A DNA stretch of 64,000 nt. Source: Bispira polyomma (lineage: Eukaryota). Where the stretch lies: NCBI GenBank assembly GCA_965649765.1, contig OZ287748.1:67084001-67148000 (forward strand), written 5' to 3'. Shown here piece by piece: positions 2,683 to 57,935 of the stretch (its first letter is position 1; the number at the start of each line of letters is the position of its first letter). A model generated the notes under the pieces. That model ran no database searches. It saw only the letters and a program-made list of their open reading frames with translations, and was not told the origin of the DNA. Both the position numbers and the translations under genes were made by a program.

Positions 2683-2774
2683 TGAAGAAATCGCCGATGC
2701 TGTATCCAATTGTCTGTTCTGTTTTGAAGTACTTAATTTCTCCAAAGTACACATCGACTTGCATTACATTCTCT
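2683..2774 (-). CDS. DEG/ENaC exon: palm beta11-beta12 up to the DEG position before TM2
   Basis: (R)ENVMQVDVYFGEIKYFKTEQTIGYSIGDFF; cttcag acceptor, gtaagt donor; phase 2 matches the donor at 26067. Confidence 0.92.
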
Positions 2775-23700: not shown

Positions 23701-26700
23701 AAGTTTTACAAGTGATACAATATATTAAATTTCCGCTTATATTCAATAGTAAGGTAACAAATACAGAGGGGGGACAGCGATTTGTGGTGAACAGCGTTTT
23801 GCCATAAATGTCAATATTACACCTAATCACTGTATAAAATTCATTTTAAAGGAATTATTTCCTTATTATAATATCCATATAACATACACAGGTGTACTAC
23901 ACAAATATCGAAAGTATTGTCTGCCCAAATAACTTTTGAATAAATTTAAAGTAACAACACAGCTAAATAAACAGTGGTACTGCTCAAAATGTGAGGTTGA
24001 TAATTAGACTGTTCTTCTGATGAGTTATTGGACTGAATTGCTGAATTTTTTCTATTTCTCATATTTTGCATCATAAAGATAAACTATTTCATATTATCAT
24101 TATTATTGTTAATCAAGCTTACAAGTAATATTTTAATGCAAATATTTATCAGTGCTTGAAAATGGCGAAATGCTGTCCACTTTGTAACCCAGTCCCTTTG
24201 GTTAATAAATTGTGGTTAAAATTCAGCAGAAAGACCTTCATGTAACTGGGTACGAGTCTGATTTGCATGCAATAGAACAACCTTCACAAATTACTTGTGA
24301 TTTGCCTTAACATTTCTTTCTTTTGCTCACATTTATCGTATGTTGAAATCCATTTTAATAAAATGAAAACTCTGTTTGTTACAAATTATTTATTGTTTTT
24401 CATGTTGTTATCTACATTCATATGTAATCTATTAAACGCTCTTGTTCAAGAATAATGTACAGATATAATCATTGTTACCTATAATATTTAACATTGACTG
24501 TTTAAATTATTTTTTTTGTAACCGATTATTAAATTCTCTAGGTAATAAATAAGTATTGTTCTAGTCATTTTATTGGTGTAGTTTAATGTGTAATATTCTA
24601 ATTGCTTGTCATCAGAACATTAATTTCTTTGGATGAAGTTTAATATATGTAGTCATTATTCATACCATTTAACCTGTAATATTTATATTATTTATCATAT
24701 AATTTCTCTACATGAATTTGTTACTTTTCAAACGTAAATAAATGTTTCCAAATATACTTTTCTTATTTCTTTCATTGTTTATATAAATTTGACCAATGAA
24801 TCATCACCATCCAGATAAATCATACACTTTTGGATAAAGTAAGCTAATCAGTCGACTAAAGCATAACATCCATGAAGTGGATATTGAGTCGTGAGCCCAG
24901 TTGATCTGAATGGCTATTTTATATTGCCTTGAAGGTAATGGAAAAGTTTTGAAATGTAGAAATATCGCCAAAATAATACAAAACTGTTCTGCATGAGTAC
25001 ATTATGCACACAGGTAGATTCTATGTTCCTTACATCTAATATGACCTCATATAGTACATTTTCGGTGTAGCTATTACTTCATGTTTACTATAATTTAATA
25101 ATGTTATGACTAGCTTAATCTTATAAGAAAACTTTCCCATTACCTTCAGATCAACTAAAATTACTTTTTGATCATTACATGTAATTAAAAGTTAAATACA
25201 AAAACAAATCATCAAAATTAAACAATTAAAAGTCTATTGCATGCTAAATATAGCCTTACAGCAAGCTAAATTTCTTAATATTACAGTATGCCTCGTTTTG
25301 AAAACTAGCTTGGTATTGATCCATTGTGTACTGAAAACAACAATGTTCCATATATGGAAAGGGCGACCCCCAAAGCCTTCACTCATGATCAACAGATGAT
25401 CTGTTTGTTGTTTTGCTTGGACAAGGTGTCCCAGTATGCAAGTACCGTTCAACTCGAAAAATTTTGTGGTGCATAAACAATTTATGTATCATCATAGTTT
25501 ACTACAGTTTGTAAATTTATTTTTAAAAAGTGTGCATTTTATGGATAATACTCTCTTCTTCAGAACAGTACCAAAAAGTTTAGTATTACGCAAATAAATA
25601 GTTAGTTCTTGGCGGGTTTTCTTCATTTATCGTTCAACTCGGCCACCACGGGTGTACTTTAAATAATTGTAATTGTACTAAGACTTTTATCGCGCTTAAT
25701 CAAAGGGGACTCTAAGGCACACCAGCACAAAAGACAGTAATCCAATTTCCAAAATCAAGGGATAGAAAAGGTCAGCCTCGAAAGAGTCCCCTAATAATGA
25801 TTTAATATACATTTAGGTTTACTGAGTAAAATTAATTCCAATTAAAAAATTTGTACTTATTAAATATTCATTAGCAGAGATACCATTACAATACTTAATG
25901 ATAAAGATTAGGACCATTTTTCAGCATATGTGCAATGCTTAGTGTTCATTAACATTTTAATTAAAAACTACTTTTAAATTTATTTGGCCTACAATTCTAT
26001 TCAGTTAAAGTATACCTCTAGAATAAATTATATATTTGTGTAGAGAAATAAAAGAAGCCATCTTACCTTATAAAAGATGGGCCAAGTGCTAGCTCAGTTT
26101 TATGAGTCTGTAGTGCTTCTTTCAGATCAGCAACTGCAGACACTAATTTGCCCTTCACTTCGACAAAAGCTATTTGTAGTTCATCCAAATCACCAAATAA
26201 GCGGTTGAAATAGTCCTCAATGGATTTCTTTGCCAGCTTCCTCCCTTCATTTTCCAAGAAAGTGATTGGTCTATTTCCAACTAATCGCTTCACTTGTGCG
26301 AATGTGAGTAGGAAAGAGACAAAATCAGAATCTTCCACACTGGGTAAGGGTTTCCTGAAAAGGTGTAATTGTTTGATTGGGTTCCCATCGATGGTATAAC
26401 CCATATACTCAGCAAGTGCAAGGAAGTCCTTTACCATGATGTCATAGTTATCACGAAGAGATTCTTCTATGCTCTTCAACTGGGCCCGTGTTGATACAAT
26501 GGTTTCTTGTTCAAAGCGGTTACTGTATGCAGAAATCAGATCATTTAAGTTACTTAAAGAAGTAGTGTTGGAGCTTCCCTCAAGCAAGAGTTCATTGGCA
26601 AGATCCAGTTTGCTAATTTTATCGTCTATATACATACCATGTATTAGGTTCACTCTACTTTCTATGTCATCCAGAGCTTTTACATCAAGTGAATCTGTTT

Positions 26701-30491: not shown

Positions 30492-33400
30492 ATATATATC
30501 TTGTGAACATCATTCTAAAATGGTAGGCTGTGCAATGCCCTTGAACATGTCTTTTGACCAATGTAAAAACCAAAGTAGATAAAGCATGGCTGTTCCATCT
30601 TTGTGTTTATATGATGGAACAGCCATAACATGGATAGAACGAGGAACCACCTTGTACACATTTGAAGTAGTCATAGAATCATTTTAATCAAAATTAAAGG
30701 TTTATCATTTTAGAAAAGGAATAAAATACTTAAACTCGTGTTTTATGCGCATCTTAAACGGTCGATGGAGTTGAATTAAACCCACCTAATCATAATAGTT
30801 TAAAATGCGCATAAATCACTTGTTTGAATTTTTAATTCCTATAATAAGAACTCTTTTCTGTTGGTTTTCTGTTATATTTCTGTAACACATGATATAGTTG
30901 TACAAACTGAAGCTTCACTAGAACAAGTCACCTCTTTATAGGATTTTATTCTATTCATTTTTTTTTTTTTTGGTATACACTTTTAAACTAATAACATTAC
31001 AAATACAGTTCCACAAAACAGTAAGACAATGTCCAATGCATTAATATACAATTACATACAAAAAGGGTCTATTTCTATATTACTAACTTACCTCACTAAT
31101 AAATACATTAATAATTTTCAAAATGTAAGAGTACAATCAAATCATCAAGTTAAAACAGCGTTATTAGCTATTAGTTATATCAGTAGAAGATTATTTAAAA
31201 CTTATTCAAGATATTTTCAAAACATTGTCTAAATTTATTCTTTATAGGAAGTAATTACCTGGCCTTTCTGAAAAAAGGATTTTGGTGTTTTGCATTTTCA
31301 GAGAGTTAAAGCTGACACAGTAACCCATGTCTGTCATGATCTCAGTAGTATAATCTTCATCACATGGCAATCCATCCCAGGAACAACTATGTCAAGACAT
31401 GTTTGCATTAATGTCTGGTTATATAAGTCAATGTACGTGTAGCCCTATTTCGGATTGGTTCAAGTTATGACTTTAGGCATATATATGAAATAAATATGTT
31501 TACTGTCAAAATAAGCTGAGAACTAGGGGTGTAATGTTATAAAATAATGCATTGCACTTCTGGCTTATTTCACTTAAACCTTTAGCGTGTTTACACTTAT
31601 TACCATAGTAATAACATTGCATAATTTGGAGGAACCTATCTCAATTCTAACAGTATTTCAGGATTAATTTTAGTAATTAAGTTTCATAAACTATTAAACA
31701 TGATTGAATTAAATATATCTATATGCCAGGTGGAGTGCATTATCATCTATGATAATGTGTATACAGAAAACGAAATGGCATTTTTAGACAGCTCATCATG
31801 TTAGAATTTTACACAAAAAGTTGAAATGTGAAGATATAAATACAGCCCGATCAGCATATACCATATATATCATAGACAAACCAAAGTGTTGAAAAGTCAG
31901 AACATTGATGTGTACATATTCACATTACTTAACTATTTAATCTTTTAAACTTTTTATAAAAGTTATAGATGTCTTCATTCTGCAATTTATTACTGACAGT
32001 TGACTTTATTAAAACTAAATAAGGCCATAATTCATATTCCCATTTTGAATAATTATGAATTTTTGGGGGGTTTTGTTGTTATGGCACAGGGAATTTATAT
32101 TATGTGGATAGTTTATGGATCATAAAACATTATGTACAACTGAAACAGAATTGAAAATTACCTCAGCAAAAAATTCTCCTTCACATGTGAAATATTCTTG
32201 ATAAAATGTTCCAAGTCCACATCTGTAATTACAAACCATTATCAGTTGTTTACACTAAGGATTACCATATTTATACAAATCTAATAAGTTTAGGCATGTT
32301 TTCTCAAGATGGTAATGCCATATTTGGATGGTATCCATATACAGTAAAATTTGTTCACAAAGACAAAACCCTGGTGCACATATGTGCCCTTTAAAAATAC
32401 ATCAATGGAAAATTCAAAAAATATAGCAAGGATACTTAGAATATTGTTCTTATAAATAATTAATTTACACAATACAGGTACCAGGTGGCATTTTTTACAG
32501 GTTTGGCTGAAATATATTTTCATACAATATGATTGCACAAAACAGAACCTAATTTGATTTTGACATTTTATTTGACATTCAATTTAGAAAATGCAAAACT
32601 TAGAATGACTTTTAAGGATGCTTTAGCATTAAGCAAACCACACCTACCCTGTGAAGCCAGCAACAAGTCAAAAGCTTCATCATGATCCAAGTAAAACGAT
32701 GTCACATGCTTTTTGTTAGTTATTGTGTAGGTTTTCATGCTGTCTACTGAGACGACAGAACCTTGGTAATTGGGCTGACCAGTTGGTTCAACAGTGGACA
32801 CGGGTGATGATGTTATAGTATGACCGACAGTAGGGCTGACATCAGGTGGTTCCTCTGTCTCTCTTAAATCTAAATTCAAAACAGCAATATGATCTCACAT
32901 ATAGTATTGTATTAAAGTTCATACTCAGCATATTTTTACCTTTATCCGGCATTCAAAGTCTTAATTAACCCACCAGTGATTGTCATTCCCCAAACTGAAG
33001 ATAGCAGCTTAATGATGATTAGTTATTTATTTGCCAAGCTGTCTTTAGGCAGACACTAGGGATAGGACCCAATAATAAAGGACCTCCATTTAAAACAGTA
33101 ATCGGACCCACTCTCCATTTGCTTGTATCTTGTTACCCCATACTAGGTTTGAATTCAGGTCCTCTGCATCCCTAAGTAAGTGTGTTACCCACTAGGTCAC
33201 AATGGCAGATAACAAATTACTGGCAAGTATACACCGCTGTTGGTGTGGACTAGTATTATATAAAAATACACAGATGTGTTAGACATAAAGAAAAGTACAG
33301 TGGTAAGTCTAAATTATACAGAAAAGGATACCACTTTGTGTTGACTTTAAAAAAGACCACTATGTATTATACCCATAATTGTTGAATCAAGTGAACGAAG

Positions 33401-39400: not shown

Positions 39401-42400
39401 AATAAGAGTAGGGTTGTTAAGTGTCACTAAGTCAGCAGCCCCCTAAAGACATTGTGCTGTGTACACTTCCTTACCTACTCAGCACCAAACAAATTACATC
39501 AAAAAGTAAAATAGTTGTTCTATTTTTACAAGTGAACTGAAAAATTATAAATGCAATTTGGCATAGAATTTGTTTAGATTAATTAATATTAGGGCTGAAT
39601 AGGACATTAGAACGTCAAATAAATTTAACTACGATTATATTAATTCCATGTTTTGTTATAAGGTAATTAACCTTCAGTGTTGACGAGTTTGTATAATATC
39701 AGTATCAGTTGGTACAACTGGTGTTAAACTTGTTAGTGCAGAGTTGGCTTTAATGACGACTTAGCATGATACATCTCTACTACAGTCATAACTTCAGTGG
39801 ACTTATGTATAGAGAAAGACTTTTGAATTTGAATTTTTTTTTTTTAATTGGGATATTTAACGTCCACTCTAGTACCTGTTTAGGTTATATTGGGACGGGT
39901 AGTTGGAAACGCTGGAGGAAACACTGCATACAGTTGATCAAGGTTCTGCACTGAAACCAGCAGCCCATGGTAAGGAACTACCACCTTTCCCACATAGGCA
40001 TTGATGGGATTCGAACTCACGCCGCCCAGAGTTGAGAGACCAGTGATTGTCATCTGATCAGGGTTTAAAAGCTGGTGCCGGGTAATACAATCAACCATAT
40101 TACCAAGCGCCCTTGAAAATGTATATGAAAACTATAGTAATTACGGGAATTTCCAAGGTTTTTAGTGTCAATTTTGCGCAATATTTTGGATAGAATGTTG
40201 ATAAAAGGTGTGGGTAAGATAAAACACACAAGACTCGCCCTATCAGGCTCATATTGTACTGTTTGATCTTCTCTTATCATATATATTTTTGTATATACAC
40301 ATGTAACAGTAATTATGCAAAAAATTCAGTAAATACACATATTTATTTATTTTGTCAATAAAGTTTTCCCACAAGTCCTAAATTTTTGAGTAAATACGCG
40401 TATTTACTAATTTTTGGCCTCCATTATTTTACAAATTTACTGGTGGTTATTTCAGTAATGTGTAATGTGAACATTTCATTCAAGTTTTTCATTTACATTT
40501 AAAACATAAACATTAATGTTTGTTATTTCATCAGTCTTTCTCATGCATATGATTTACATGTAATATTATTTGGTCGTTTAACCAAAAGATAAGATAAGAC
40601 ACCAAAAGTACAGTTGCTCAGTATTTTTAGTAAGTGGCAAAACTTATGTCTAATGCTACTCCCACATGTAAAGTCGAGTTTCACTACACAAGTTATGCAA
40701 AGTTAAAACAAGTCTCCCACCTTCCAGAGATAGATACCAAGTTAACTTGTCAAAGCTTGTAATGGAGCTTTTGCTGACTTTTTGTTAAGTCATGGCAACT
40801 TGGTTTAAATCGTGGCAGCTCTGGGCCGGCTGAAAAAATGTGTTTTAGAAACTTATGACAACTCGTGCTTTTTTTTAAGGCCAAGAGAAAAGCTGAGGCC
40901 ATCCGAGTTTAATATGTGCTTGTCAGGAGTAATGTGGAATCCAGGCCAAGTTAAAACTCTAGCTTAGTTGGGCAAGTTAAGCATTAAACACTGTGTCTAA
41001 TTTAGGAAGGTGTGACACCCATATTAAAGGATAGAAGTAATCTTCTAAACTCTGCTTCTAGTCACTTGTCCACTTACCTGAAGTTTGAGTACTGATAAGG
41101 GTAGCCTGAAGTGTGTATATTGCCAATGCTGTCAAAGTACACATAGTTGTAATGGTCGCCTTTGTAGGCGAGGCATAGGTCACAATCTAAACAGCATAGC
41201 ATAAAAGGATGTATAAAAATAGGAATTAGTTGTGAACTATTCTAGCCAAGTAATTCACAGTGAAAATATTGATGTCGTATTAGTTTTTAAACTAAAAATG
41301 AGCAATAGTAAAATTAATTCCAATTCATGAAAATACTGAAATTCTTTCCCATCTAAAATTCCCCCTGCTAAATACAGTATATATGTATATAGACATACTG
41401 CTGTCTCTGTAACTTGGCAATTACATTTGATGTTTAATCAGTAGTACATTAAGTGCCTGTGATATAATATGCATGTACATCACCTCAAGGTTTGAATCAA
41501 GAAGTCAAATTAAATAACATAACAGAGATGGAACCTATATTTGACATGTCATACCACACACCATACACACTGTATTCAAGGATTAAATCAAGATGTAAAA
41601 TATAATAAAATGAGAGATTGATCTATTTATATGCTATATCATATAAGCACACCTCACAATGCACTGCAGGTGTATCTGTACAGTTAAAAAATAACCGAAG
41701 AGATATCTATAACTATTTTTGTCATATGTCATAGACTCACACCATACACTGTGTTGAAGGTTTATCTGTGAAGTTAAATTAAAATAAAAGAAGAAAGATA
41801 GAACTATTGATTTGATATGTCATATAATCACACAACACACTGTATTCAAACTGTATCTGTGAAGTTAAATTAAATAAAAGAGGAGAGGGTAAACTATTTA
41901 AGTGATATGTCATACTGACACACACACCACATATTTGACTGAAGGTGTATCTGTGATGATTACTGACCTTGATTTGACACCACATTCTCCCCAAGCAAGG
42001 ATGCACTCTTCTGTACAGTGTCATGTGATACAAAGATCCATTGCATGTAAATACTGTCAGCTAACTGGACATAAGGATGTTCCCCTAAATTGAAGTCTGT
42101 TGATACTGAGGCTTCAGTAGGAAACACTGCATAGAAACATAACAGTAAAATGTGTTCTGCAACACACCAAAAATTGTGTAGAATATCAACATTTTATGGA
42201 TACTACAGGTACATAATGATGGTATTGTGTAAGAGTATACAAACAATTTATGGCCAATTCATATTAATGTTAACATTTTAGCTATGTACATTGTATTTAC
42301 ATATAATGCAATATGCACTTGCAGAAAATCCACAAATACATATGGCCTGTTTAATTTATGTTTTCCTTAAACAACAATGAATATTCTACAAAAGGTAGGA

Positions 42401-45400
42401 TTGTTATTCCAAAACAGGTCTTGCAGGTATGTGTGACATTTTATTTTTATCTGTCCATTGCTTCGATATAACCATATATTTAGGGAAAGTAATGTCTTGG
42501 AAATTAATTTTACATATTCTATTCAAGCTCCACCAACATTGTTACAATAGTATCTATAAAATTCATATTTACTAACACCATATTTTTTTACATGGAACAA
42601 ACACTTTTTTTTCCTTTTTTTAAAAAAAATATTATCCTATCGTATTAAGACAGCGAGAGTAGAGAAACCGCCCATTTGGGAATTAACAATTTCTTTCAAA
42701 TGCAGTATAAAATTTTATACAACCAAGTATACAACATAACAATTTATGACATTTAAAATTATAGCGAAAATATAGTTGACAGAATAATTTTTCAGCTGCT
42801 TTTTTAAAGTTTTTGGTTTTCAGATAATAAATCAATATTGCACAGACTAAGAATATGGCTGTAGTCCACTATTTGTGTTACCTTTGTGTTTTCAATATTT
42901 GTCAAGTTTACAGTTGCTAATATACTGACTCTTCTCATTCTCCAGTTTTTACCTGTGTTGAAATCCTCTTCAGAGAGTGTACAGTTTTCTTCACTCAGCT
43001 GGATCTCATGAATATTGAAGTCATCAGCTGTTTGATAAATAGCTGCAATGACAAGTCTGTGGACCATGCCCTCTCCACCTGGTACACAGAAACTACACTT
43101 CACCAAGCCATCACGTGACTTTTCACAATTTGTGATATCACTGAAGTCATCCATGCCATTCGTTGTGACATCAACACCTTGTTGCATCACTGGGACTCTT
43201 GAGAAACCGTAGGTGCCTTCCAGCCAAACTAATATCCCATTATCTGATAGGTATGTTAAAGTTTGCATCTTTATGGTCAGTTTTTTATTTTTGCTGAAGT
43301 TTTCAGGTTGTGACAAAATGATGGCCGTTTCTCCTTTTACCGTTGAGGGCCATGTTGTCAAGTGAAGAGATGTTTCTGAAAGGTAAAAACAAAAAAAATT
43401 AGTTACAGCTGTATGGGATAGTAAACCTGGTTCCATTATAATACAATTATAATAGTCAATGAGCATAATGCACAAAAAACTTAACCATCAAATGCAGGCA
43501 AAAACATTTGAATTAGTTTTCTAACATCACAAACAAAAATATAATCGCTTGCTCCAATGCTAGCGCAGATGCAAGCGCAAATTCTATGAGAGTTTTCAGC
43601 CTTACACAACTGTCACAGTGCGATTTCAGTGCTCGACATCACTCGTGAACTGCTAATCGGCCCACTTTACAGAACAAAATGGATACTTAATATACTTACC
43701 ATAATAAATGTCATAGTCTGTTTTTTCCCAAGTTAGCTGATCGTGATTATTTAGCTGCCTATAGCCACATATGTACTTATCATCAAACCCACAACTGATT
43801 GTGATTTTGGATTCTAAAAGACAAAACCAGATATGGAAGTTACAAGGATCACCAAACCTCAGAACAAACAATCTCTATGTACAATATAGAATCTACTATG
43901 CTCTTACTGCTGTAAAAATAATAATAATAATTACATTTCTATACAGCATTTCAAGTTTTAGATAAATGTCTGTTCCAATGCGTTTTACAAACAATTTATT
44001 TTAAGACACATACTCTTATAATATATTTGTCAAGAAAGACAATAGTGGCACTAACTTTTTTAAATATATAAGATTTCAATTGTTATTTAAGACTTTCAAC
44101 AGATACTAAGGTCTTGGTGTCTTCTGGTTGTGGGTGTTCTATTTTGTTGGTGCTGCTACTGAAAATGCAGGACCATCAATTGTTTTGCATTTTGACTTTG
44201 GAATCGTGAGTTAGAGGTTTCCTGCTGGATCGGGTTATCTGACAAGATTTCTCTTTAGTTATTAGTATCACATTTATAGAACTATTACAATATTAACAGC
44301 ATTCATGAAGTGTATAGTATCAGTAAACAAAAAATGTTGTAAGCATTATAAATATTAGTTGTAAATATTGCACCTGCACAACAGCACACCTCATGTGCTA
44401 TCTTTATTACCATGTAGGCAGTCCTTATACTGGTATTATATCTAACATGTTGGTGATCAGTATACCATATTCTGTCTAATTGGTATGAAGCAGTCATCTT
44501 AGATTTTGTGTGGTTTCACAACACAATGAAGTACCTCTATAAGGATATTCACACTTACCACATACACTGGATTCGTCGCTCCAGTCATCACAATTGCGTT
44601 CATTATCACAGGTTTTGGACAGTGGGATACAGATACCATCCCCACAGGTAAATTCCTCCTCTTCATTGCATGCTAAAGTCATTACACATATATAATGAGA
44701 CATGCAATCCATAGAGCGCTAAGCATGTTATTCCATCAAAACAAGTATTCATTTAAAGTGTGTGACATCAAAGTATTGTCTTAATGTGATGTAACACAAC
44801 GTAACTTGTGCATACGTCACACCACTATTTCAGTGAACTTGGAATATAAATTTAGACAGACTGGACATATAATCAATTAGTCATTTTGGGCATGAGGTGA
44901 TATGAAATATTGGATAAAGGTTTGGTAAAGGTAATTTATTAAGAGCCAGGTACACAAATGTAATTATAATTTAATTTTGAAACAAAACATTTTTATGCTA
45001 CTACAAAATTAGAACTTACTTAAACATAAAAACATTTAGATGCTTCCTCTTTCTTTATACAACAAATGAGGTATTGATGGGTGGAATTAAATAATCAATT
45101 GGATAAAACTATTGCCAACTAAGGACAATTATAGCCAATTGCCTCCACAAATATGTTAAATATGATACACCTACCGCATCGGTCTATGTCACATGGTTCC
45201 AAATTCCAGTACCCATTGCTAGTACTGGTAAAACATGAAGGAAATGCTATGCCTTCGATGTTTATGTATCTACAATGATTTTCTAAGGTGTCAATACTGC
45301 TATCGGGAAATAATATTGTCATCAGTGCCTCTTCTTGATCAGGAAGATTGAACTCATGAATAATATCCGTCCAGGGCAAACATTGCCTCCCAGACACAGA

Positions 45401-48400
45401 GACTGATTTTGTGCCAATATATTCTAGTCCGACAACACTCTGGATGCATTCACGTTCTGTGGTGGTAGAATGAAACATGTTAAATAAGTATTGGCAAAAC
45501 TTGAGACAAAGCATCTTGGTAAACAGAAAGTCAATTCACAGGGTAAGTCAAGTTGGGTAACTTTTGCAATTAATCTGCGACTTTATATAAAAATCAACTG
45601 GAGATAATTTAATAATTGATTACATAATATTAAAAAATATCAGTACCTTTAAAAGCTTGAAAGTTTAAAAAAAAGAGTTTTGCTTTATCAGGAAGCAAAA
45701 GTTGTTTCATTCAACATAGAATAGTTATAAGTAGGTTTTAATAGTTAACAGCAATGGTCTGTGAGTGCTTTAATTATATGACATTTAAAAGAAAACGGTG
45801 TGGTACATATTTAGGATATCAGATAAATAAGATGTTATTCGTACATGATCATAATGCACTTCAGATGTTAACTATGTTCATGTCTATTATACAGTGTACA
45901 TTATGGCTTTCTATTTGTGCAATTGAACTAAATAAAAACCAAATATTAAGTCACCAAACAATTAATGACACTCACTCATTTCTTCACAATGGGTTATCTC
46001 AATATCATCCAACATAAAACTATTGGCTTCCTCTGACTGTTTTGCCTCCAATATCACTTTATGAACACCATCAGGAAATGTGTGGTACAGCCGTAGCCAT
46101 TGCTGTCCAAGCACGACATCCTCACCAAAAATCTCAGTACCATTGATAATGGCCTCCTCGGTAGTCATTAATGACTCTTTTTTCAGGCGAACACGGAAGG
46201 TCCCATCCCCACCGTATGTTTCATTTTGTGTCAACATAGACACAAAGAGGAAGATACAACGACCTGTGGTATTGATGTAATTTGTGGTTTCCATCTGAGC
46301 TGTTTTGCCTGCTGCTGCTTTTGTGTCACGGAACAACAAGTAATGTCCCATTGCTATATTGATAAAACAGATACATAATATTTGGATGATATGTTAAAAA
46401 ATAAGGTTCAATTTGAGTGATAAGCAACAACAGAGTGAAGGCTACATTGTGGCTTGACCAGATATCTACATTCTTGGCTGCACAAAGTGTAACTCTTCTT
46501 TTGCTTTTTGTTAAACAATGTCAAGGCTGAGTTCAGTAATGATTGTTCAAGATCATTATGAATTAAGGTTAATTGATCACAGTTTACTTAGTGGTTGTAC
46601 GCATCTGTGTTAATACTACCAACTTCTCACATCCAAGGGTATTGCAAATATGGCAATCCTGATTACTTTGTAGTGTGGGAACATTTGGTGATGCCATAGG
46701 ACTGTGGTTTCCTGAATATAGAATACCAGATTCCCCCACCAATAAATCTGGCCATTACAATGTAATCAAAGATGTTGAAACTGGCTTGAAACCAAAATAA
46801 ATTCAACCAATCCACCTAATCCAACTACAGTATAGACATGTTTGCTTTGCAACTTATGGCTGTCAGATTATGATGTGCAGTTGATATAAAAATATAAAAT
46901 GGCTACTTTTTGTCTTTGCTATTTTCACAGCCAGCTAGAAAACGTAATGTCTATTGACAGCTCAAGTTTGATGGCAATAACACCTCAATTACAAATGTAA
47001 TTGTTAGCATTTTTATTATAGCAAACATTTAATAGTGCTAAACTTGATGTCAAAAGAAAGCAGAATGGAATGCCACATTATACCTAATAAAAACCTTTAA
47101 CGAATGAGTTGGGAAAACATATAAAACCGCACAAAAGGTGGCTAGTGGGCGAGTGATTATAAAGAGATTTTAAACATGGTTCTCAAAGCAGTTCAACTTC
47201 AATTTTCAGGATAGTGTGCAAATATGTTACACTTACTACTGTTGTATGTAACATCCGGGTAACTTGCTGTGACTCTTTGCCATGTTTCTGCTTCACTTCC
47301 CAGTGTCGCAAACCGACAACGGGATTGAGAGTCTCCGGCATCATCTTCAAAGGTGCAATATATTCTGGAATTATCTGTAAAATATAATGTATAGTTGGTT
47401 TTGTTTGAAGGTATAGATATATGCAGGTATAGATAGATAGTTTTCTTCTATTTTTTGTAACAGTATTGATATCACATATTTGTAGGTAAAACAGTTCCGT
47501 TTTGGTTGTTCAAGGAAGTCCAACATAATACAAGGTAATTGCACACAAAAAGTTCCCAGTAATTCTTGATAACCCTCCCACAAAAAAAGTATTCAACGCA
47601 TGCTTATTTAGACAAGAGAGACAAATTAACGCATAAATTTGTACTCTGTGAAACCAGGAAGGAACAATTACAAAGTGGAAATTTCACTAAAATTTATTAA
47701 AATAGTATTATCAGGACTCATATATTCTTAGATTACAAAGAAAAACATTATTTTTGATAAAACATGAAGCAATACTCTTCCACTGAATTAATCTACCATT
47801 ATTTGCATATCTTAAGCTTTACACCTACCTATACATCTCTGCTTCCTGTAGAAGTGCCTCCTACTATTAATACAGTTTGTCTGTCTTACGTTTGCCTCTT
47901 CTTGGGTAAACCATTTTTCATCTTCACCCGTGAATGACGTCAACGTGCATGTTCGAGTTGTTGCATCATATAAAAACCCACTACACATTTCAGCTTCTAA
48001 GAGATCTGAACAAAGCCTTTGACATACCGACGCTGTTGTTTCGACAAAGGATCTCACAAATATGGCATTTGGTGGAATGGTACAAACTAGTGGGTTGAAC
48101 AAATAGGTTTCTTGACATTCCTGAGCTTCACCTGTATACACAAATATAAGACCAAAATAAAATGTCCGATCCATATATGATTTGGACACCAAACAGAACA
48201 TCTGCTATTCAATAGGTATCAGAATGATTACATTTTGATATCAATAAATTATTTGGTACAACAGTTAAGTAAATAAGAAACAAGTTCCAAGTAAATATTG
48301 AATATATACATACAATGTGGTGGTAGACACAGTGTAAAACAATATAACACAATAGTGCAACAAAAATAGCAACATACTGTAGCTGATGTGATATTTAACC

Positions 48401-51400
48401 AGAACCTTACTTGTGTGGTGTTTCTGTGAGTCATATATGTAAGTCGTGATGTCATATACCCCATATCTTTGTAGAGCAGCAAGCCTAGTAAACAAAAAAC
48501 CACAACAAATGTCTCATATATTTTTTATCAAAGTAAAACACATTCAAGTGCATCCAGATAGGTGTTTTTGTATGGTATTGTAGTTTAATACCAACAACTC
48601 CCTGTGTTCTGGGACTCAAAGCAATAATTTACCTTTTCCTGATTGCACATGGACAACCAACCAACCAGCAAAAGTAACTGCCATTCCACTAACTGAAGAT
48701 AGCTTCAGGATTGCCATTTATCAATGTTTCCAATGTTCTTTATAGCCCAGTCACACCTACACATGATAAAGTCCCGTAACGTAGCATAACAATAAAATCT
48801 GAAAATGTGGTTGTTTGTATCAATGTGACGTCATTTCCATGAAGGTGCAGTCGATTGTGACGTTGGTGACGATGTTGATGACGTTTTGTGACAATTTTAG
48901 TACTTTTACACACGGACCCGGGAGTAAAAAACAGACTTTACTGGTATGATATCACTGGCTACTACTACATAGATTTACTGTATGCTACTTACGGCTGCGT
49001 TATGGTGTGTTTTGCTATCGTTTACGACGAATATAGACAAGTGGAGACGATCTCATTACTTACTGCTACATTATGGTAGTTATACAGATGAGTGGAGACA
49101 TCCTCGAGAAATGGAGAGCTCTTTCACGATTATTTCGCAATAATCATGGCAACAGACCAAAAGAGACGTTACCGGAAGGATATCATCCATTAACCAACGT
49201 CACAAACGCACCAGGGATCCTCACTTTTGCATTACCTCCTACTACGTTTGTACTAGGTTTAAAAACAACTGAAAACGTCACCCAAATGTATCTCCAGCAC
49301 ATGTAGGTTTGACTGGGCTATTAGCCTGCCCCTGAGGGTGGAATTCAAAGCAGGTGGCAGATGACTACAATTTCAAGTGGTTATCCTAGCCACTATATAT
49401 CTGCATGTGCCTGGGCTGAAATCAAATCCAGGTCCACTGCATACCCACTAGGCAACAGTCGTCTTGCAACAAACTAGATCCTGGAAAATAAACTTGCTTC
49501 ATCTGGTATGCAACAAGAACAAATACCAGATAAAGAATGATATATGAGAGATAATTCTAGATAGGTTATGTTACACTTTACACAGCAGGACCCTTTAGGG
49601 GCCTGATACTTCAGTCCACTTACAAACCTTTTAACTTTCATCACAACCTTAATTTCGGTTATACCAACAATATATGTAGCTATTTACTGGGCTACTAGCC
49701 AATCACAGCCCACACACTTGTTGTTTAGGCTTCACTTTCCAAATCACCATTTTGAATCTACATTCAAGCTATAGAATTCAAAGCAACAACAAGTGAAAAA
49801 TATTTTATGAAATAAATGAATTGTATTTAGGCGATTTTATTATTTTAACTTGGTTTTTATGACACATTGTGTGCTACATATTGTGAATCAATCGACATGG
49901 GTCGTACTAAGAAAACGCCCACACACAGCTCAGTTAAAAAATCGACCAAGAAACCACTTACAGCAAGAAAGACAAAGGAAAGGCAAGTAGTTGATTCTCT
50001 CGTCTTGGACCTCGACGGTCAATTATCACAGGTAGCGGGCCCCTCTAGTACTGACAATTCTTTTCAACAGATAAATAGCGATGCCTCGCCAATGATGGCG
50101 ACTCGGGGGCCCCTACTTAGGCCGGGTTCTGACACAACCAGCAGCCAGAATTCTGACCAAATGCTTGCCATTCTCATGAGGCTTGAAGCTTCTAACACCG
50201 ACTTAGCTGGTCGTTTGCAGAAAGTAGAACAACAGGCATCGACTAACGCATCCATGTTACCTACCCCATCTCTCCTCGGGACGGGTCACACACCGGCCAT
50301 CGGGCAGATGGGAACTACAGCTTCACTTAACGTGCAGGGTACATCTGCATACAACCAACCTGCTACAGGCCACCACGGTCAGATCGCTGCCGGATCACTA
50401 CCACAGACGGGTTATCCTCCTCAACAACCAGCACAGGGCAACGCTGCGTTCGCGCTTCACACTCAGTCAGGCAATATTGCATCAGCTTATATGCAGAACG
50501 CTAGACCAGACATCCCCGTAGCAACACACACGGGCTACGCGGGTCACGATTACCAACGAGAAGGGATCGTACCGAATCTAGGTGCTTTAAGAACCTTACC
50601 TCACGTCCAGGCGGAAGTTACCAGACAACTTGCTCAGTATTCAGCACTTGCACAGCGAGATATAACACAAGGTAAGGCATCTCTTAAGCATAAATCGGGA
50701 CGGTTCAATAACACAGACGTCACTTCCATGGATCCCAGGCTAAGGTGGCCTAACGAAGGGTGGGTAGGGGGTTCTTCAAAGAAGAAGCCAACGTTCAATG
50801 AACTCACACTGCCGCAGTGGGCTGCAGGGCAGCTCGCTAACGCGCTATTAGTACCTAACCCTGCTGAAATGAAGGACATGGTAAGACAAATAGTATCAGC
50901 ACTCAGAGATGCTTCATCTCTTCCGTGGCACGTTGTCAGGACAGCCTGGGCTCTCAGTATGCACGAGGTTGAGGAGGGCCGGCTGTCCTGGCAGAACGAC
51001 ACCCAATGGTCACTGAATAGGCTCAGTGCTTCCCAGGTAGCCATGGTCAACAGTGCAAACGTAGGTATTAGCAACAGCAATTCTAGCAACGATTCTAAAC
51101 TTATTTGTAAGTTATATAACAATGATAAATGTACCCACAAGTCAGATCACGACAAATACAAACACATCTGTTGGCATTGTAGCCGAACCCTGGGAAAGGA
51201 CTCCAACCACCCCGAGTTCAAGTGTTACAGATCCAACAGTAAACAGCTGGACACTCAGGTAAACCAAGGAAAGCAAAGCTAGGTAATTCTTCAACAACCA
51301 GGAGAACGAACTATAGTTAAAGATAATTGCAAAGTAGAAATAAGAGATGAGTATGATAGTAACATTAAAATTGTAAAAGGTGAGCTTAAATCTAATGATG

Positions 51401-57400: not shown

Positions 57401-57935
57401 AAGCATTCTGAATATAAATTTAAAACATGTGCAGACCGAGGAATCAAAAACAGGGGTGCAGACGGTAAAATTTAGAGCAATCAGCCAATGAGGGTCAAGC
57501 CCAGCTGTTTATGGTATTTATTTTATCTGGTCTACAAATCCAACCATTCTACTCAGATACTCAGGGTCTGAAACTTAAACTCATTGTTGAACTTAAACAT
57601 CTCCACATTATAATTATGGAAATAATCATTAATTTTATATAGAGCTATTAATGAGGCAGTCAAACGTGTAGTCAGATTTTAAATATCCTTGTTCTACATA
57701 GAGATATTGCAGGATAAAGATGGAATTATATGACCCCCCCCCCCCCATCTCTCACTGATGTATTTACCTGTAAGGGTTCTGGTTACACATAGTGACAGTG
57801 GGGAATGGCACTCTGTCCAGGTATCCCACCTCCACTTCTATGTTGGAGGGGTACTTGTAGAAATGGACCAGTCTGTTAGCAATGGCATAAGTAAATATGA
57901 TGATTACTGATACCACCACAATGATCCAGGCAATT
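2683..57935 (-). CDS. Giant multi-domain DEG/ENaC (ASIC-like) channel subunit; 24 exons in window, partial at both ends
   Basis: Exons 5'->3': 57768-57935, 48411-48484, 47829-48131, 47237-47374, 45976-46353, 45175-45456, 44559-44672, 43700-43813, 42953-43375, 41968-42126, 41078-41186, 38630-38735, 38032-38197, 36370-36726, 34649-34744, 33711-34064, 32648-32869, 32162-32222, 31259-31386, 30202-30284, 29596-29694, 28552-28702, 26067-28260, 2683-2774. All are GT-AG with matching phases and no stops. DEG/ENaC motifs occur in the expected order: TM1 + FPTVTMCNQN, CSWDG..C, TDMGYCVSFN, GSEYGLRLTLN, VSPG, a 10-Cys thumb, ENVMQVDVYF. Confidence 0.88.
5177..7510 (+). mobile_element. Ty1/copia LTR retrotransposon, degenerate and 3'-truncated
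   Basis: 5' LTR TGTTG..CAACA (5177-5407) followed by a copia-type PBS GGTTATGG; gag (WEVKF.., UBN2-like, CYSCGRPSHIQSSC knuckle); protease LVDCGATAH; RT remnants (EQPKGF, LKKSLYGLKQSGRNW, VWVDD); stops and frameshifts; no 3' LTR. Confidence 0.92.
6747..7006 (-). mobile_element. tRNA-derived SINE, full length
   Basis: Minus strand begins GGGGCCGTGGTGGCCTAGTGG (A box), has GTTTGAATCC (B box) and an AT-rich tail; close copy at 39845-40050. Confidence 0.88.
7512..8240 (-). mobile_element. L2/CR1-group LINE, 3' fragment
   Basis: ORF2 C-terminus (SRLDYGNSL..LQNIQ..HITPVLKSLHWLPI); 3' end AAGCGCTATAAAA followed by an (ATTAG)n tail. Confidence 0.88.
8510..8946. mobile_element. TA-flanked MITE (Tc1/mariner-pogo type)
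   Basis: 23-bp TIR CATCWGTGGWCGTTACTTCGGCC (2 mismatches), TA on both sides. Confidence 0.85.
9726..10371 (+). repeat. 646-bp near-identical copy of 12562-13207
   Basis: Direct repeat at offset 2836; only about 2 differences seen. Confidence 0.95.
13930..19525 (-). mobile_element. Ngaro/DIRS-type YR retrotransposon (element 1), decayed, 3' repeats lost; boundaries approximate
   Basis: gag with Cys/His finger (17865-19150); RT (HCSPLLTRPK..RRLILNLS, KVDIKNAFRNI); RNase H (YVDAC..HFEM..SDN..ADTLSR); YR (HCFRRSGAS..HGCWKSDAVWAYL); multiple frameshifts. Confidence 0.92.
23390..23750 (-). mobile_element. Penelope-like element fragment (GIY-YIG endonuclease remnant plus terminal region)
   Basis: NLIYCITCKTCKSQYVNQPKRRLMNRFQGH, with a hammerhead motif downstream. 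Confidence 0.8.
23391..23445 (-). ncRNA. Minimal type I hammerhead ribozyme, probably degenerate
   Basis: ACGT-CUGAUGA-GCUUCUUCGGC-GAAAC..GAAACUGUGUUCAGUC-AUG; 13-nt tandem duplication in the GAAA/stem III segment. Confidence 0.65.
26067..28260 (-). CDS. DEG/ENaC exon: end of thumb, beta10, and a ~680-aa knuckle insertion
   Basis: 2194-nt exon, phase 1-2: ELCSLEDYLQC..SCDCPDACNQTSYDVQLSHSALS, then a long open helical/low-complexity region ending GPSFIR. Confidence 0.9.
26975..27205 (-). repeat. Coding 21-nt tandem repeat, about 11 units, (GDxE[S/T]NS)n
   Basis: Repeated tcacc(c/t)gaatttg(a/t)ctcc on the + strand; translates GDEESNS/GDGETNS. Confidence 0.95.
28552..32222 (-). CDS. DEG/ENaC core ectodomain exons (32162-32222, 31259-31386, 30202-30284, 29596-29694, 28552-28702)
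   Basis: DVDLEHFIKNISHVKENFLLS|CSWDGLPC..TDMGYCVSFN..RPG|SEYGLRLTLNIE..DSGIK|IHFA..P..GYAVSPGTHALFSL|..YGTC..YTTSHCVTEC..QCDCLVPYMP. Confidence 0.93.
30437..30499. repeat. (TA)n microsatellite
   Basis: Interrupted TA run. Confidence 0.95.
30717..30840. repeat. Short palindromic MITE-like repeat
   Basis: ~36-bp imperfect inverted arms, aggaat..tttatgcgcat / atgcgcataaa..attcct. Confidence 0.6.
32648..32869 (-). CDS. S/T/P-rich linker exon closing the finger cassette
   Basis: DLRETEEPPDVSPTVGHTITSSPVSTVEPTG..LLLASQ; phase 1-1. Confidence 0.75.
33711..34744 (-). CDS. MAM domain 4 (exons 34649-34744 and 33711-34064)
   Basis: NCNFEDINQCGY..W then LVSP..GCIKL..RFGITA..VISEIELTQSEC; phase 1-1. 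Confidence 0.8.
34330..34517 (-). mobile_element. Older related tRNA-derived SINE
   Basis: Minus strand GGGAGCAGCCGTAGTGGCCTAGTG (A box), TTTGAATCC, and 3' end ctgttgaaagcgacataaacccc; similar relics at ~37150-37380 (+), ~46650-46800 (+) and ~29185-29330. Confidence 0.7.
36370..36726 (-). CDS. MAM C-terminal-half exon (MAM domain 3)
   Basis: SRLITP..HCFSFEY..WRKAYI..LVIHG..VVLDNVLL..RC; phase 1-1. Confidence 0.88.
37400..37810. repeat. Degenerate intronic tandem repeat
   Basis: Recurring ttagatctggtt..tacaggcaaata..agtgaccatc units. Confidence 0.6.
38032..41186 (-). CDS. CUB domain (exons 41078-41186, 38630-38735, 38032-38197)
   Basis: GNIHTSGYPYQYSN | RNSAWLI..GERIKLTFLDFAVE..CGYDSL | HCG..P..S.GNTLIIRFSSD..KG..Y; phases 1-2, 2-0, 0-1. 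Confidence 0.92.
39845..40050 (-). mobile_element. SINE, 5'-truncated copy of the 6747-7006 family
   Basis: Close match to ~6765-6965. Confidence 0.88.
41480..41955. repeat. Degenerate ~90-bp intronic tandem repeat
   Basis: Recurring tgtcata..cacacca..cactgt..tgtatctgtgaagttaaattaaa units. Confidence 0.65.
41968..42126 (-). CDS. Cys-less MAM N-terminal-half-like exon
   Basis: VFPTEASVSTDFNLGEHPYVQLADSIYMQWIF..; clean splice sites, phase 1-1; F..Y.Q..W spacing resembles the other MAM N-halves. Confidence 0.6.
42953..43813 (-). CDS. MAM domain 2, divergent (exons 43700-43813 and 42953-43375)
   Basis: SCGFDDKYICGY..W then ..RLVIAA..IHEIQLSEENC; phase 1-1. Confidence 0.75.
44559..44672 (-). 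CDS. LDL-receptor class A domain exon
   Basis: [37 protein letters not shown]; phase 1-1. Confidence 0.95.
45175..45456 (-). CDS. Kringle domain exon
   Basis: ECI..GLEYIG..SGRQCLPW..ENHCR..PSCFT..EPCDIDRC with 6 Cys; phase 1-1. Confidence 0.92.
45976..47374 (-). CDS. MAM domain 1 (exons 47237-47374 and 45976-46353)
   Basis: YCTFEDD..CRF..W in the first exon; GHYLLF..CIFLF..W..HKVILEA..LDDIEITHC in the second; both phase 1-1. Confidence 0.85.
47829..48131 (-). CDS. PAN/apple domain exon
   Basis: CQRLC-x8-CSGFLY-x6-CTL pattern; phase 1-1. Confidence 0.85.
48411..48484 (-). CDS. DEG/ENaC exon: start of finger domain, linking the TM1 exon to the inserted cassette
   Basis: (R)LAALQRYGVYDITTYIYDSQKHHT; polypyrimidine + tag acceptor, gtaagg donor; phase 2-1 bridges NQNPYR to the PAN exon. 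Confidence 0.8.
48743..49320. mobile_element. PIF/Harbinger-type MITE
   Basis: TIR TAGCCCAGTCAMACCTACA (19 bp, 1 mismatch) with a TTA TSD on both sides. Confidence 0.85.
49897..51282 (+). CDS. Ngaro Gag-like protein
   Basis: Open ORF from MGRTKK; C-terminal CKLYN..C.H..H..HICWHC..HP..C finger; homologous to the element 1 gag. Confidence 0.88.
   Translation: MGRTKKTPTHSSVKKSTKKPLTARKTKERQVVDSLVLDLDGQLSQVAGPSSTDNSFQQINSDASPMMATRGPLLRPGSDTTSSQNSDQMLAILMRLEASNTDLAGRLQKVEQQASTNASMLPTPSLLGTGHTPAIGQMGTTASLNVQGTSAYNQPATGHHGQIAAGSLPQTGYPPQQPAQGNAAFALHTQSGNIASAYMQNARPDIPVATHTGYAGHDYQREGIVPNLGALRTLPHVQAEVTRQLAQYSALAQRDITQGKASLKHKSGRFNNTDVTSMDPRLRWPNEGWVGGSSKKKPTFNELTLPQWAAGQLANALLVPNPAEMKDMVRQIVSALRDASSLPWHVVRTAWALSMHEVEEGRLSWQNDTQWSLNRLSASQVAMVNSANVGISNSNSSNDSKLICKLYNNDKCTHKSDHDKYKHICWHCSRTLGKDSNHPEFKCYRSNSKQLDTQVNQGKQS
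51463..54098 (+). pseudogene. Ngaro RT-RNase H ORF, frameshifted by a 77-bp tandem duplication
   Basis: KIDVARAFRNL, FGWIHGS and YIDD RT motifs; RNase H D-E-D-D residues; duplication 53256-53412 splits the ORF into 51463-53364 and 53376-54098. Confidence 0.9.
54105..55080 (+). pseudogene. Ngaro tyrosine recombinase with a 1-nt frameshift near 54300
   Basis: Catalytic set FLRLSN..K..HTFRRSG..HGLW..VWAYL; the N-terminal part (ALRPKTSSAY..F) is in another frame upstream of 54300. Confidence 0.9.
57768..57935 (-). CDS. DEG/ENaC exon: TM1 and post-M1 FPxxTxCN motif
   Basis: IAWIIVVVSVIIIFTYAIANRLVHFYKYPSNIEVEVGYLDRVPFPTVTMCNQNPYR; tttcag acceptor, gtaaat donor, phase 2-2. Confidence 0.95.

Follow-up and report, generated by a model that had tools for sequence, protein, structure and literature searches.

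The stretch of DNA analyzed in this study, referred to as the window, comprises 64,000 nt of the Bispira polyomma assembly GCA_965649765.1 (contig OZ287748.1, positions 67,084,001-67,148,000), and all coordinates given below are window positions. The window consists of AT-rich, intron-rich DNA of animal type and harbors a minus-strand gene whose predicted product is a sodium channel of the DEG/ENaC type (Pfam ASC, PF00858), carrying a cassette of extracellular modules in its finger domain. The gene was modelled with 24 exons running from 57935 to 2683 on the minus strand, comprising 2,123 codons in a stop-free joined frame, and AG/GT ends were present at all 24 modelled exons. Matches to Pfam ASC, the amiloride-sensitive sodium channel family, were obtained for the first modelled exon and for three later exons, in profile order. 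The first exon (57768..57935, phase 2-2) encodes the first transmembrane segment (TM1) and the post-TM1 strand, and was matched by Pfam ASC (2.5e-11) as well as by BASIC (3e-8) and ASIC1 (0.008) in the PDB. It is followed by the first finger exon (48411..48484, phase 2-1), corresponding by position to the alpha1 region, which has AG/GT ends and an open frame and alone gave no Pfam match. Downstream of the cassette, the chain continues with the DVDLEH exon, representing the finger alpha3 equivalent (32162..32222, phase 1-2), and with three core channel exons at 31259..31386 (phase 2-1; Pfam ASC, 3.6e-5), 30202..30284 (phase 1-0; tblastn with the Owenia protein P0131, E 0.003), and 29596..29694 (phase 0-0; tblastn with P0131, E 0.005). 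These are followed by a thumb exon (28552..28702, phase 0-1; Pfam ASC, 1.4e-6) and a giant exon of 730 codons (26067..28260, phase 1-2), which encodes the thumb end and a knuckle insert and is supported by Pfam ASC on residues 6-54 and by homologues. The last modelled exon (2683..2774, phase 2-1) probably encodes the strand preceding the second transmembrane segment (TM2); it lies 23.3 kb downstream of the remaining exons and is weakly supported (tblastn E 0.56 with 48%, Pfam ASC profile 403-431 at E 0.2, AG/GT ends).

The core exons matched Owenia P0079 with 28% over 325 residues (E 1e-46), with conserved thumb cysteines and without large gaps, and P0079 itself possesses an intact TM2 that matches ASIC1. 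Together with the Pfam profile order, this match shows beta-ball, palm, and cysteine-rich thumb in their expected succession. The best PDB matches were ASIC1 and BASIC, of the ASIC/BASIC branch (clade A), being sequence matches and not a placement in a tree. The best explanation for the product is a DEG/ENaC cation channel subunit that would assemble into trimers and that comes from a subfamily of lophotrochozoan type, characterized by its large helical insert in the knuckle. A second DEG/ENaC paralogue was not found within the 64-kb window.

The cassette consists of 15 exons inside the finger (48131 to 32648, minus strand; 3,321 nt, 1,107 codons), arranged in the order PAN, MAM1 (two exons), kringle, LDL receptor class A (LDLa), MAM2 (two exons), a cysteine-free exon, CUB, a MAM C half, MAM4 (two exons), and a Ser/Thr linker. 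At E values up to 0.1, Pfam matched nine of these exons and left six without a match, thereby supporting PAN, kringle, and LDLa with one exon each, CUB with two, and MAM with two N and two C halves; the cysteine complements of the modules are retained. In detail, all on the minus strand and in phase 1-1 unless stated otherwise, the PAN/apple module (47829..48131; PAN_1, 3.8e-5) is followed by the presumed N-terminal half of MAM1 (47237..47374), which has no Pfam match but contains two cysteines and aligns to the other N halves, and by the MAM1 C-terminal half (45976..46353; Pfam MAM 1.9e-6, profile 43-157). The kringle module (45175..45456) scored 8.8e-8, slightly below the curated cut-off, and has six cysteines; the LDLa module lies at 44559..44672 (Ldl_recept_a, 1.9e-9). 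MAM2 comprises an N-terminal half (43700..43813; Pfam MAM 0.018, profile 1-24) and a probable C-terminal half (42953..43375), the latter proposed because it follows the N half and being without Pfam, PDB, or profile support. The CUB block is formed by a putative first exon (41078..41186, phase 1-2), assigned from the next two exons and having an open frame and AG/GT ends but alone no Pfam match, by exon 2 (38630..38735, phase 2-0; Pfam CUB 5.3e-6, profile 28-59), and by exon 3 (38032..38197, phase 0-1; Pfam CUB 3.2e-5, profile 74-110). Further downstream, the MAM3 C-terminal half (36370..36726; Pfam MAM 1.5e-7, profile 54-158), the MAM4 N-terminal half (34649..34744; Pfam MAM 0.0062, profile 1-24), the probable MAM4 C-terminal half (33711..34064), which follows its N half without Pfam or profile support, and a cysteine-free Ser/Thr/Pro-rich linker exon (32648..32869; 26% Ser+Thr) complete the cassette.

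The MAM-type domains are each divided over two 1-1 exons, and exon borders are thus not module borders. Judging from pairwise identities of only 19-26%, the MAMs of the cassette are old. The CUB block immediately precedes the MAM3 C half, an adjoining recognizable N-half exon is missing, and a scan of the intron at 38031-36727 revealed no separate MAM3 N-half exon. The cysteine-free exon upstream of the CUB block (41968..42126) represents either a linker or a degenerate MAM3 N half; it aligns by eye to the N halves. Pfam and PDB searches with this exon were blank, and as a MAM3 N half it was not significant in a three-sequence profile (608 of 1000 shuffles scored as high), a profile that is nearly powerless, given that a Pfam-confirmed C half scored only 2.1 bits. 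In the joined test with the same low-power profile, 16 of 500 shuffles scored as high. CUB may be nested in a MAM composed of exons 42126-41968 and 36370-36726, an arrangement that also appears, by eye, in the Platynereis entry comp419641. The intron before the first CUB exon contains a 91-bp tandem repeat with 2.7 copies (41580-41955).

Analysis of the intron phases revealed that 12 of the 15 cassette exons are of class 1-1, the other three, namely the CUB block (41186-41078, 38735-38630, and 38197-38032), being 1-2, 2-0, and 0-1. The upstream finger exon (48484-48411) is of phase 2-1 and the downstream DVDLEH exon (32222-32162) of phase 1-2. In this regard, the initial annotation of the locus, which had described exactly this pattern, was confirmed by the 24-exon model and the splice-matrix check. 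Phase 1 introns account for 14 of 16 in the cassette versus 3 of 9 elsewhere in the gene (Fisher p = 0.0099), and the binomial p for the excess in the cassette is 1.2e-5 with an assumed background of 1/3 and 2.1e-3 with a background of 1/2, the introns not being fully independent in these statistics. Both cassette introns that are not in phase 1 lie within CUB. Using leave-one-out splice matrices, the chosen donor was the best GT within 30 nt in all 24 exons and the chosen acceptor the best AG in 21 of 24; the sole cassette exception was exon 42126-41968, for which the rival AG lies 30 nt off and keeps the phase. This agreement, together with the phase-preserving rival, indicates that the phases are not an artefact of boundary choice. 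The class 1-1 rule for exon-shuffled extracellular modules is the standard explanation of such phases, according to the covered part of a review (PMC8001218). The proposal that these modules were acquired by exon shuffling is upheld by the Pfam identities of PAN, MAM, kringle, LDLa, and CUB on phase-1-flanked exons. Phase symmetry of this kind is what exon shuffling is known from textbooks to leave behind; it does not demonstrate alternative splicing.

The position of the cassette follows from its flanks. The DVDLEH exon aligns to P0079 from residue 236 on, where P0079 in turn aligns with the ASIC1 stretch from residue 150, i.e., the helix preceding the first ectodomain cysteine pair, and the TM1 exon aligns with BASIC and ASIC1. 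Both alignments place the cassette in the finger, between the alpha1 and alpha3 equivalents. The span between the flanking finger cysteines amounts to 1,159 residues with the cassette and to 52 without it, compared to about 60-65 in six lophotrochozoan relatives with compact fingers (hand count on the covered entries); for chicken ASIC1, alignment positions give about 79. Accordingly, the assumption that skipping the whole cassette restores a compact finger holds only roughly. In other family members, this region contributes to regulation and ligand binding: the ENaC finger contains, between alpha1 and alpha2, the protease-sensitive GRIP gating domain (PMC6197857, in the part covered), and the peptide pocket of FaNaC1 is located in the finger region (passages of PMC11026163).

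To compare the finger with those of relatives, Supplementary Data 2 of PMC10507113, a set of DEG/ENaC sequences collected with hidden Markov models, was covered in 7 of its 53 parts and in search passages, and the statements on its entries refer to these. The Platynereis entry comp419518_seq7 features, by eye, PAN-MAM-kringle-LDLa-MAM, i.e., the first five cassette modules in the same order, and comp419518 seq4 and seq2 comprise TM1 and a core with knuckle insert. In five further Platynereis entries, the sequence passes from TM1 via the finger to PAN and MAM (KN_1127, comp411065, comp414816_seq14, Contig10257, and comp413503), comp411397 has PAN only in the finger, and comp400938, Contig7281, and comp422880 show LDLa plus another domain (all by eye). 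Entries 920-1,020 residues long with a compact finger came from Platynereis (several), Octopus (one), and Aplysia (one). At the corresponding place, entries from Ptychodera and Saccoglossus have, again by eye, strings of LDLa modules, LDLa-CUB, PAN-kringle, or further combinations, and Macrostomum entries contain kringle-like and WSC modules. In the covered part of the set, the motif DGSDE was counted at least 36 times and NYCRNP at least seven times. The full-length giant-exon relative from Owenia (P0079/P0131) has ASC, the same knuckle insert, and LamG plus a Thr-rich linker just before the alpha3 equivalent. Two consecutive Owenia models were also noted, Ofus_G051248 (TM1, then LamG) and Ofus_G051249 (starting inside LamG and ending with TM2), which may be the two parts of a single gene whose finger contains a LamG string. 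Like the Bispira gene, the module-bearing entries covered from Platynereis, Owenia, Ptychodera, Saccoglossus, and Macrostomum carry their module strings directly after the post-TM1 motif. Judged from these sequences, the finger genuinely is a hot spot of insertion, with a module content that varies between genes.

At this site of the protein, relatives have other strings or no string at all, which agrees with the idea of a landing site for serial shuffling, but a single ancestral phase-1 intron, as originally suggested, is unproven. By eye, the hemichordate examples seem to belong to a separate branch of the DEG/ENaC family, so that an insertion-tolerant loop that was reused is as likely as one ancestral intron. 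As weak evidence, a search with the giant exon against longer proteins yielded no full-length module-bearing homologue among 8,000 scored candidates, and a search with the core region of P0131 gave two matches among 7,999, both from Owenia.

The knuckle insert was analyzed separately. It accounts for about 670 residues of the 2.2-kb giant exon and is helical, with a Ser/Gly/Glu-rich middle. AlphaFold2 (43 sequences) returned a mean predicted local distance difference test score (pLDDT) of 76 for the giant exon, with long helices and values below 50 for residues 312-462; hence, long helices are predicted with high confidence around a disordered middle. The latter contains a 21-bp tandem repeat and varies in length by Ser/Gly/Glu repeat. 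Foldseek gave no match for the insert at E 0.001, and VIA-align returned designed four-helix bundles with a best Z of 10.4, which is in the common range for helical bundles and indicates no family. Four close homologues of the giant exon were found among 7,999 candidates, and the comparison with cluster representatives gave 127 matches, many to the low-complexity middle only. Two homologues, P0001 and P0002, both come with a longest contig of 1,200,292 bases, which suggests tandem paralogues. A structure model of P0079 was poor outside the insert (mean pLDDT 59) and was set aside, and the ESM Atlas gave no usable match for P0131 or the giant exon. In ENaC, the knuckle touches the finger of the neighboring subunit (PMC6197857, in the part covered); by analogy with this contact, a helical mast alongside the module string is plausible.

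Taken together, these results favor, with a probability of roughly 0.55, a constitutively spliced receptor-channel subunit, whose finger antenna would bind a large extracellular partner and relay binding or tension to finger-thumb gating. The modules would have arrived long ago by exon shuffling and would now be spliced in as a fixed string, diversity arising mainly between paralogous genes rather than between isoforms. The string could act as an antenna for a putative matrix glycoprotein, secreted protein, or cell-surface ligand; being anchored in the finger at both ends, it might, upon binding or under tension, shift the finger against the thumb and change the open probability, and it may also keep the channel in place. 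This proposed effect on open probability is derived from the anchoring at both ends and from the role of the finger as the stimulus-sensing region in other family members. The apparently conserved module order in the Platynereis entry, the lack of duplicated exons, the low identity among the MAMs, splice sites that are not weak, and short introns (median 664 nt in the cassette) are indirect signs of constitutive inclusion. Probably, the cassette serves as an antenna of fixed composition and not as a set of modules to be recombined by splicing.

Several points weigh against this interpretation. The EGAS channels of C. elegans, likewise equipped with additional modules, produced no current when expressed in oocytes (passages of PMC10424705). 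The exon chain is a predicted gene model, conduction is presumed, and neither a TM2 exon with the selectivity filter nor an exon preceding TM1, i.e., an N-terminal exon with the pre-TM1 His-Gly motif, was found in the 64-kb window. Furthermore, the C halves of MAM2 and MAM4 and the N half of MAM1, assigned by their position and cysteine pattern, found no support in Pfam or profile tests. The covered entries of Supplementary Data 2 refer to the first 400 residues each, with domains called by eye, and orthology with the Platynereis gene is assumed and not tree-based. Splice-site scores did not differ between cassette and core (donor 8.6 versus 7.3 bits, p 0.30; acceptor 6.9 versus 5.3, p 0.63), splice-site strength being a weak predictor and the matrices being built from this gene only.

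The silence of the EGAS subunits in oocytes would also agree with a protein acting mainly as an adhesion or scavenger receptor, in which the DEG/ENaC fold serves as a trimeric stalk and the cassette localizes the protein or captures cargo without controlling a pore. The module content resembles that of cell-surface receptors, and TM2 is missing from the window. However, the thumb cysteines are kept, and the gap-poor alignment is to P0079, a protein whose TM2 is intact and matches ASIC1; this explanation is considered rather unlikely.

PAN, MAM, kringle, LDLa, and CUB-type modules are typically binders rather than inhibitory peptides, and this general experience speaks against a cassette that functions as a removable brake, keeping the channel shut until a protease excises it. 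Such a brake would resemble GRIP of ENaC, which occupies the same loop (PMC6197857, in the part covered), and the Ser/Thr linker that closes the cassette on its C-terminal side might be accessible. Since no furin-type R-x-K/R-R site occurs in the whole 2,123-residue model, however, this possibility is regarded as unlikely, slightly more so than an adhesion receptor.

The initial annotation had further proposed that any module or the entire cassette could be skipped in frame, giving rise to combinatorial splicing, by which cells would produce many ectodomain isoforms, including a channel with a compact finger. With respect to the reading frame, this is correct for 8,192 of 32,768 exon subsets, which are in frame and stop-free and include omission of the entire cassette, but exons are not modules: because the MAMs are split over exon pairs, the majority of in-frame subsets would halve a MAM and thus break a fold. 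Skips of symmetric exons that preserve the frame are overrepresented in animals (PMC8001218, in the part covered), and relatives with one module or none among the covered entries show that short fingers are viable in the subfamily. Shuffling by itself, however, would already produce the symmetry, and without the whole cassette the finger would measure 52 residues, fewer than in the compact fingers of the relatives. For six Platynereis and Owenia names searched in the covered material, the multiple entries resembled consecutive fragments and not skipped forms. Clusters of the Dscam type are characterized by tandem duplicated, mutually exclusive exons, docking/selector RNA pairings, and many isoforms. 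Tandem duplicated exclusive exons of this kind were not found here, the MAMs being only distantly similar and arranged in series, and blastn between exons in the region 26-58 kb gave no match other than the internal repeat of the giant exon, and no duplicated alternative exons. Considering that the splice sites are not weak either, combinatorial splicing is possible in frame but has no positive evidence and faces several signs of constitutive inclusion; we rate it as improbable, marginally below a removable brake.

Finally, that the cassette exons form a separate nested gene or that the locus is a decaying pseudogene is very improbable: two very long introns full of retroelements, one MAM without a clear N half, and gene ends not found in the window would fit, but 24 exons without a stop or frame break, matching phases at both cassette ends, and covered Platynereis transcript entries connecting TM1 directly to PAN and MAM speak against it.

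Besides the channel gene, the window contains several mobile elements. The intron after TM1 houses a retrotransposon on the plus strand (49575-56458) with open reading frames for reverse transcriptase, RNase H, and tyrosine recombinase. It carries split direct repeats (49575-49810/55274-55509 and 55087-55278/56267-56458), a layout that we take to be of the Ngaro type, and it contains a perfect 77-bp tandem duplication (53256-53409) at the polymerase frame change. A second element with RNase H-like and integrase N-terminal matches (about 14100-19200, minus strand) resides in the 23.3-kb intron preceding the last modelled exon, and a degraded copia-type remnant (Pfam Retrotran_gag_2, Pol_BBD) was detected at 5390-7500 (plus strand). 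At about 22100-22510, on the opposite strand within the long intron (plus), lies a cysteine-rich frame that by eye resembles a PHD-type zinc finger and is possibly a nested gene or a transposon piece. Near-identical reading frames at 9849-10330 and 12685-13165 point to a local duplication that is recent and spans 480 bp or more.

The phase symmetry as such is ordinary, and the interest of the locus lies in the receptor-channel architecture more than in the splicing idea. No description of receptor-like module strings in a DEG/ENaC finger was found in the literature searched, subscription journals being mostly outside this scope, and none was found in the covered parts of PMC9545775, PMC10725132, PMC9234716, PMC9949801, and PMC6827283, the last of which describes small knuckle insertions in Trichoplax. 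Such module-bearing sequences are already present in public sets, as seen in the covered parts of Supplementary Data 2, though undescribed in the literature searched; the main text of PMC10507113 makes no mention of LDL, kringle, or domain architecture, and the module-bearing entries are uncharacterized there. We tentatively raise the possibility, which is rather doubtful at present, that these sequences belong to an overlooked class of receptor-channels in marine bilaterians, in which DEG/ENaC fingers repeatedly, on separate branches, took up shuffled modules of the PAN, MAM, kringle, LDLa, CUB, LamG, or lectin type, and for which proteins, glycans, or matrix tension would be the direct opening stimulus, module skipping perhaps adding isoform-level tuning. 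If true, such channels would come with an integral tether, a feature for which mechanosensory degenerins have been searched for a long time. Whether degenerins sense force through a tether is discussed as open in the covered part of PMC10148893, and this model would become testable with a tether encoded by the channel itself. The known stimuli of DEG/ENaC channels are protons, short peptides, proteases, and force, always acting via a small finger region; a receptor-sized antenna in the finger would be a natural chimera for studying how distant binding opens the pore. Alignment trimming in phylogenies hides such finger domains.

Compared with known systems, the gene shares extracellular modules between phase 1 introns with class 1-1 mosaic proteins (PMC8001218). 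Unlike in the usual mosaics, the host is an ion-channel gating domain, within which exon shuffling would have acted, and the word 'channel' is absent from the covered part of that review. EGAS-1 to -4 of C. elegans (EGF plus ASC, in the sequences covered) are likewise DEG/ENaC subunits fused to mobile extracellular modules, but their EGF repeats are N-terminal (by eye), whereas the modules described here lie inside the finger, after TM1; no EGF domain was matched among 21 exon translations, a set to which the N-terminal exon does not belong. FaNaC and WaNaC are also lophotrochozoan DEG/ENaCs, and their finger helices form the ligand pocket (passages of PMC11026163). In contrast to the present gene, they are without mobile modules, and P0131 matches FaNaC far more weakly than ASIC1 (2e-18 versus 2e-55). 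With ASIC1 and BASIC, the alignment covers TM1, the post-TM1 motif, the beta-ball, and the cysteine-rich thumb; however, both are without a knuckle insert, and the chicken ASIC1 finger is more than ten times shorter than the 1,159 residues found here. As in ENaC, an extra domain, regulatory in that channel, is inserted in the finger after alpha1 (PMC6197857, in the part covered), but GRIP is confined to ENaC, where this small beta domain is cut out by proteases, whereas the Bispira finger holds a string of mobile modules without a furin-type site.

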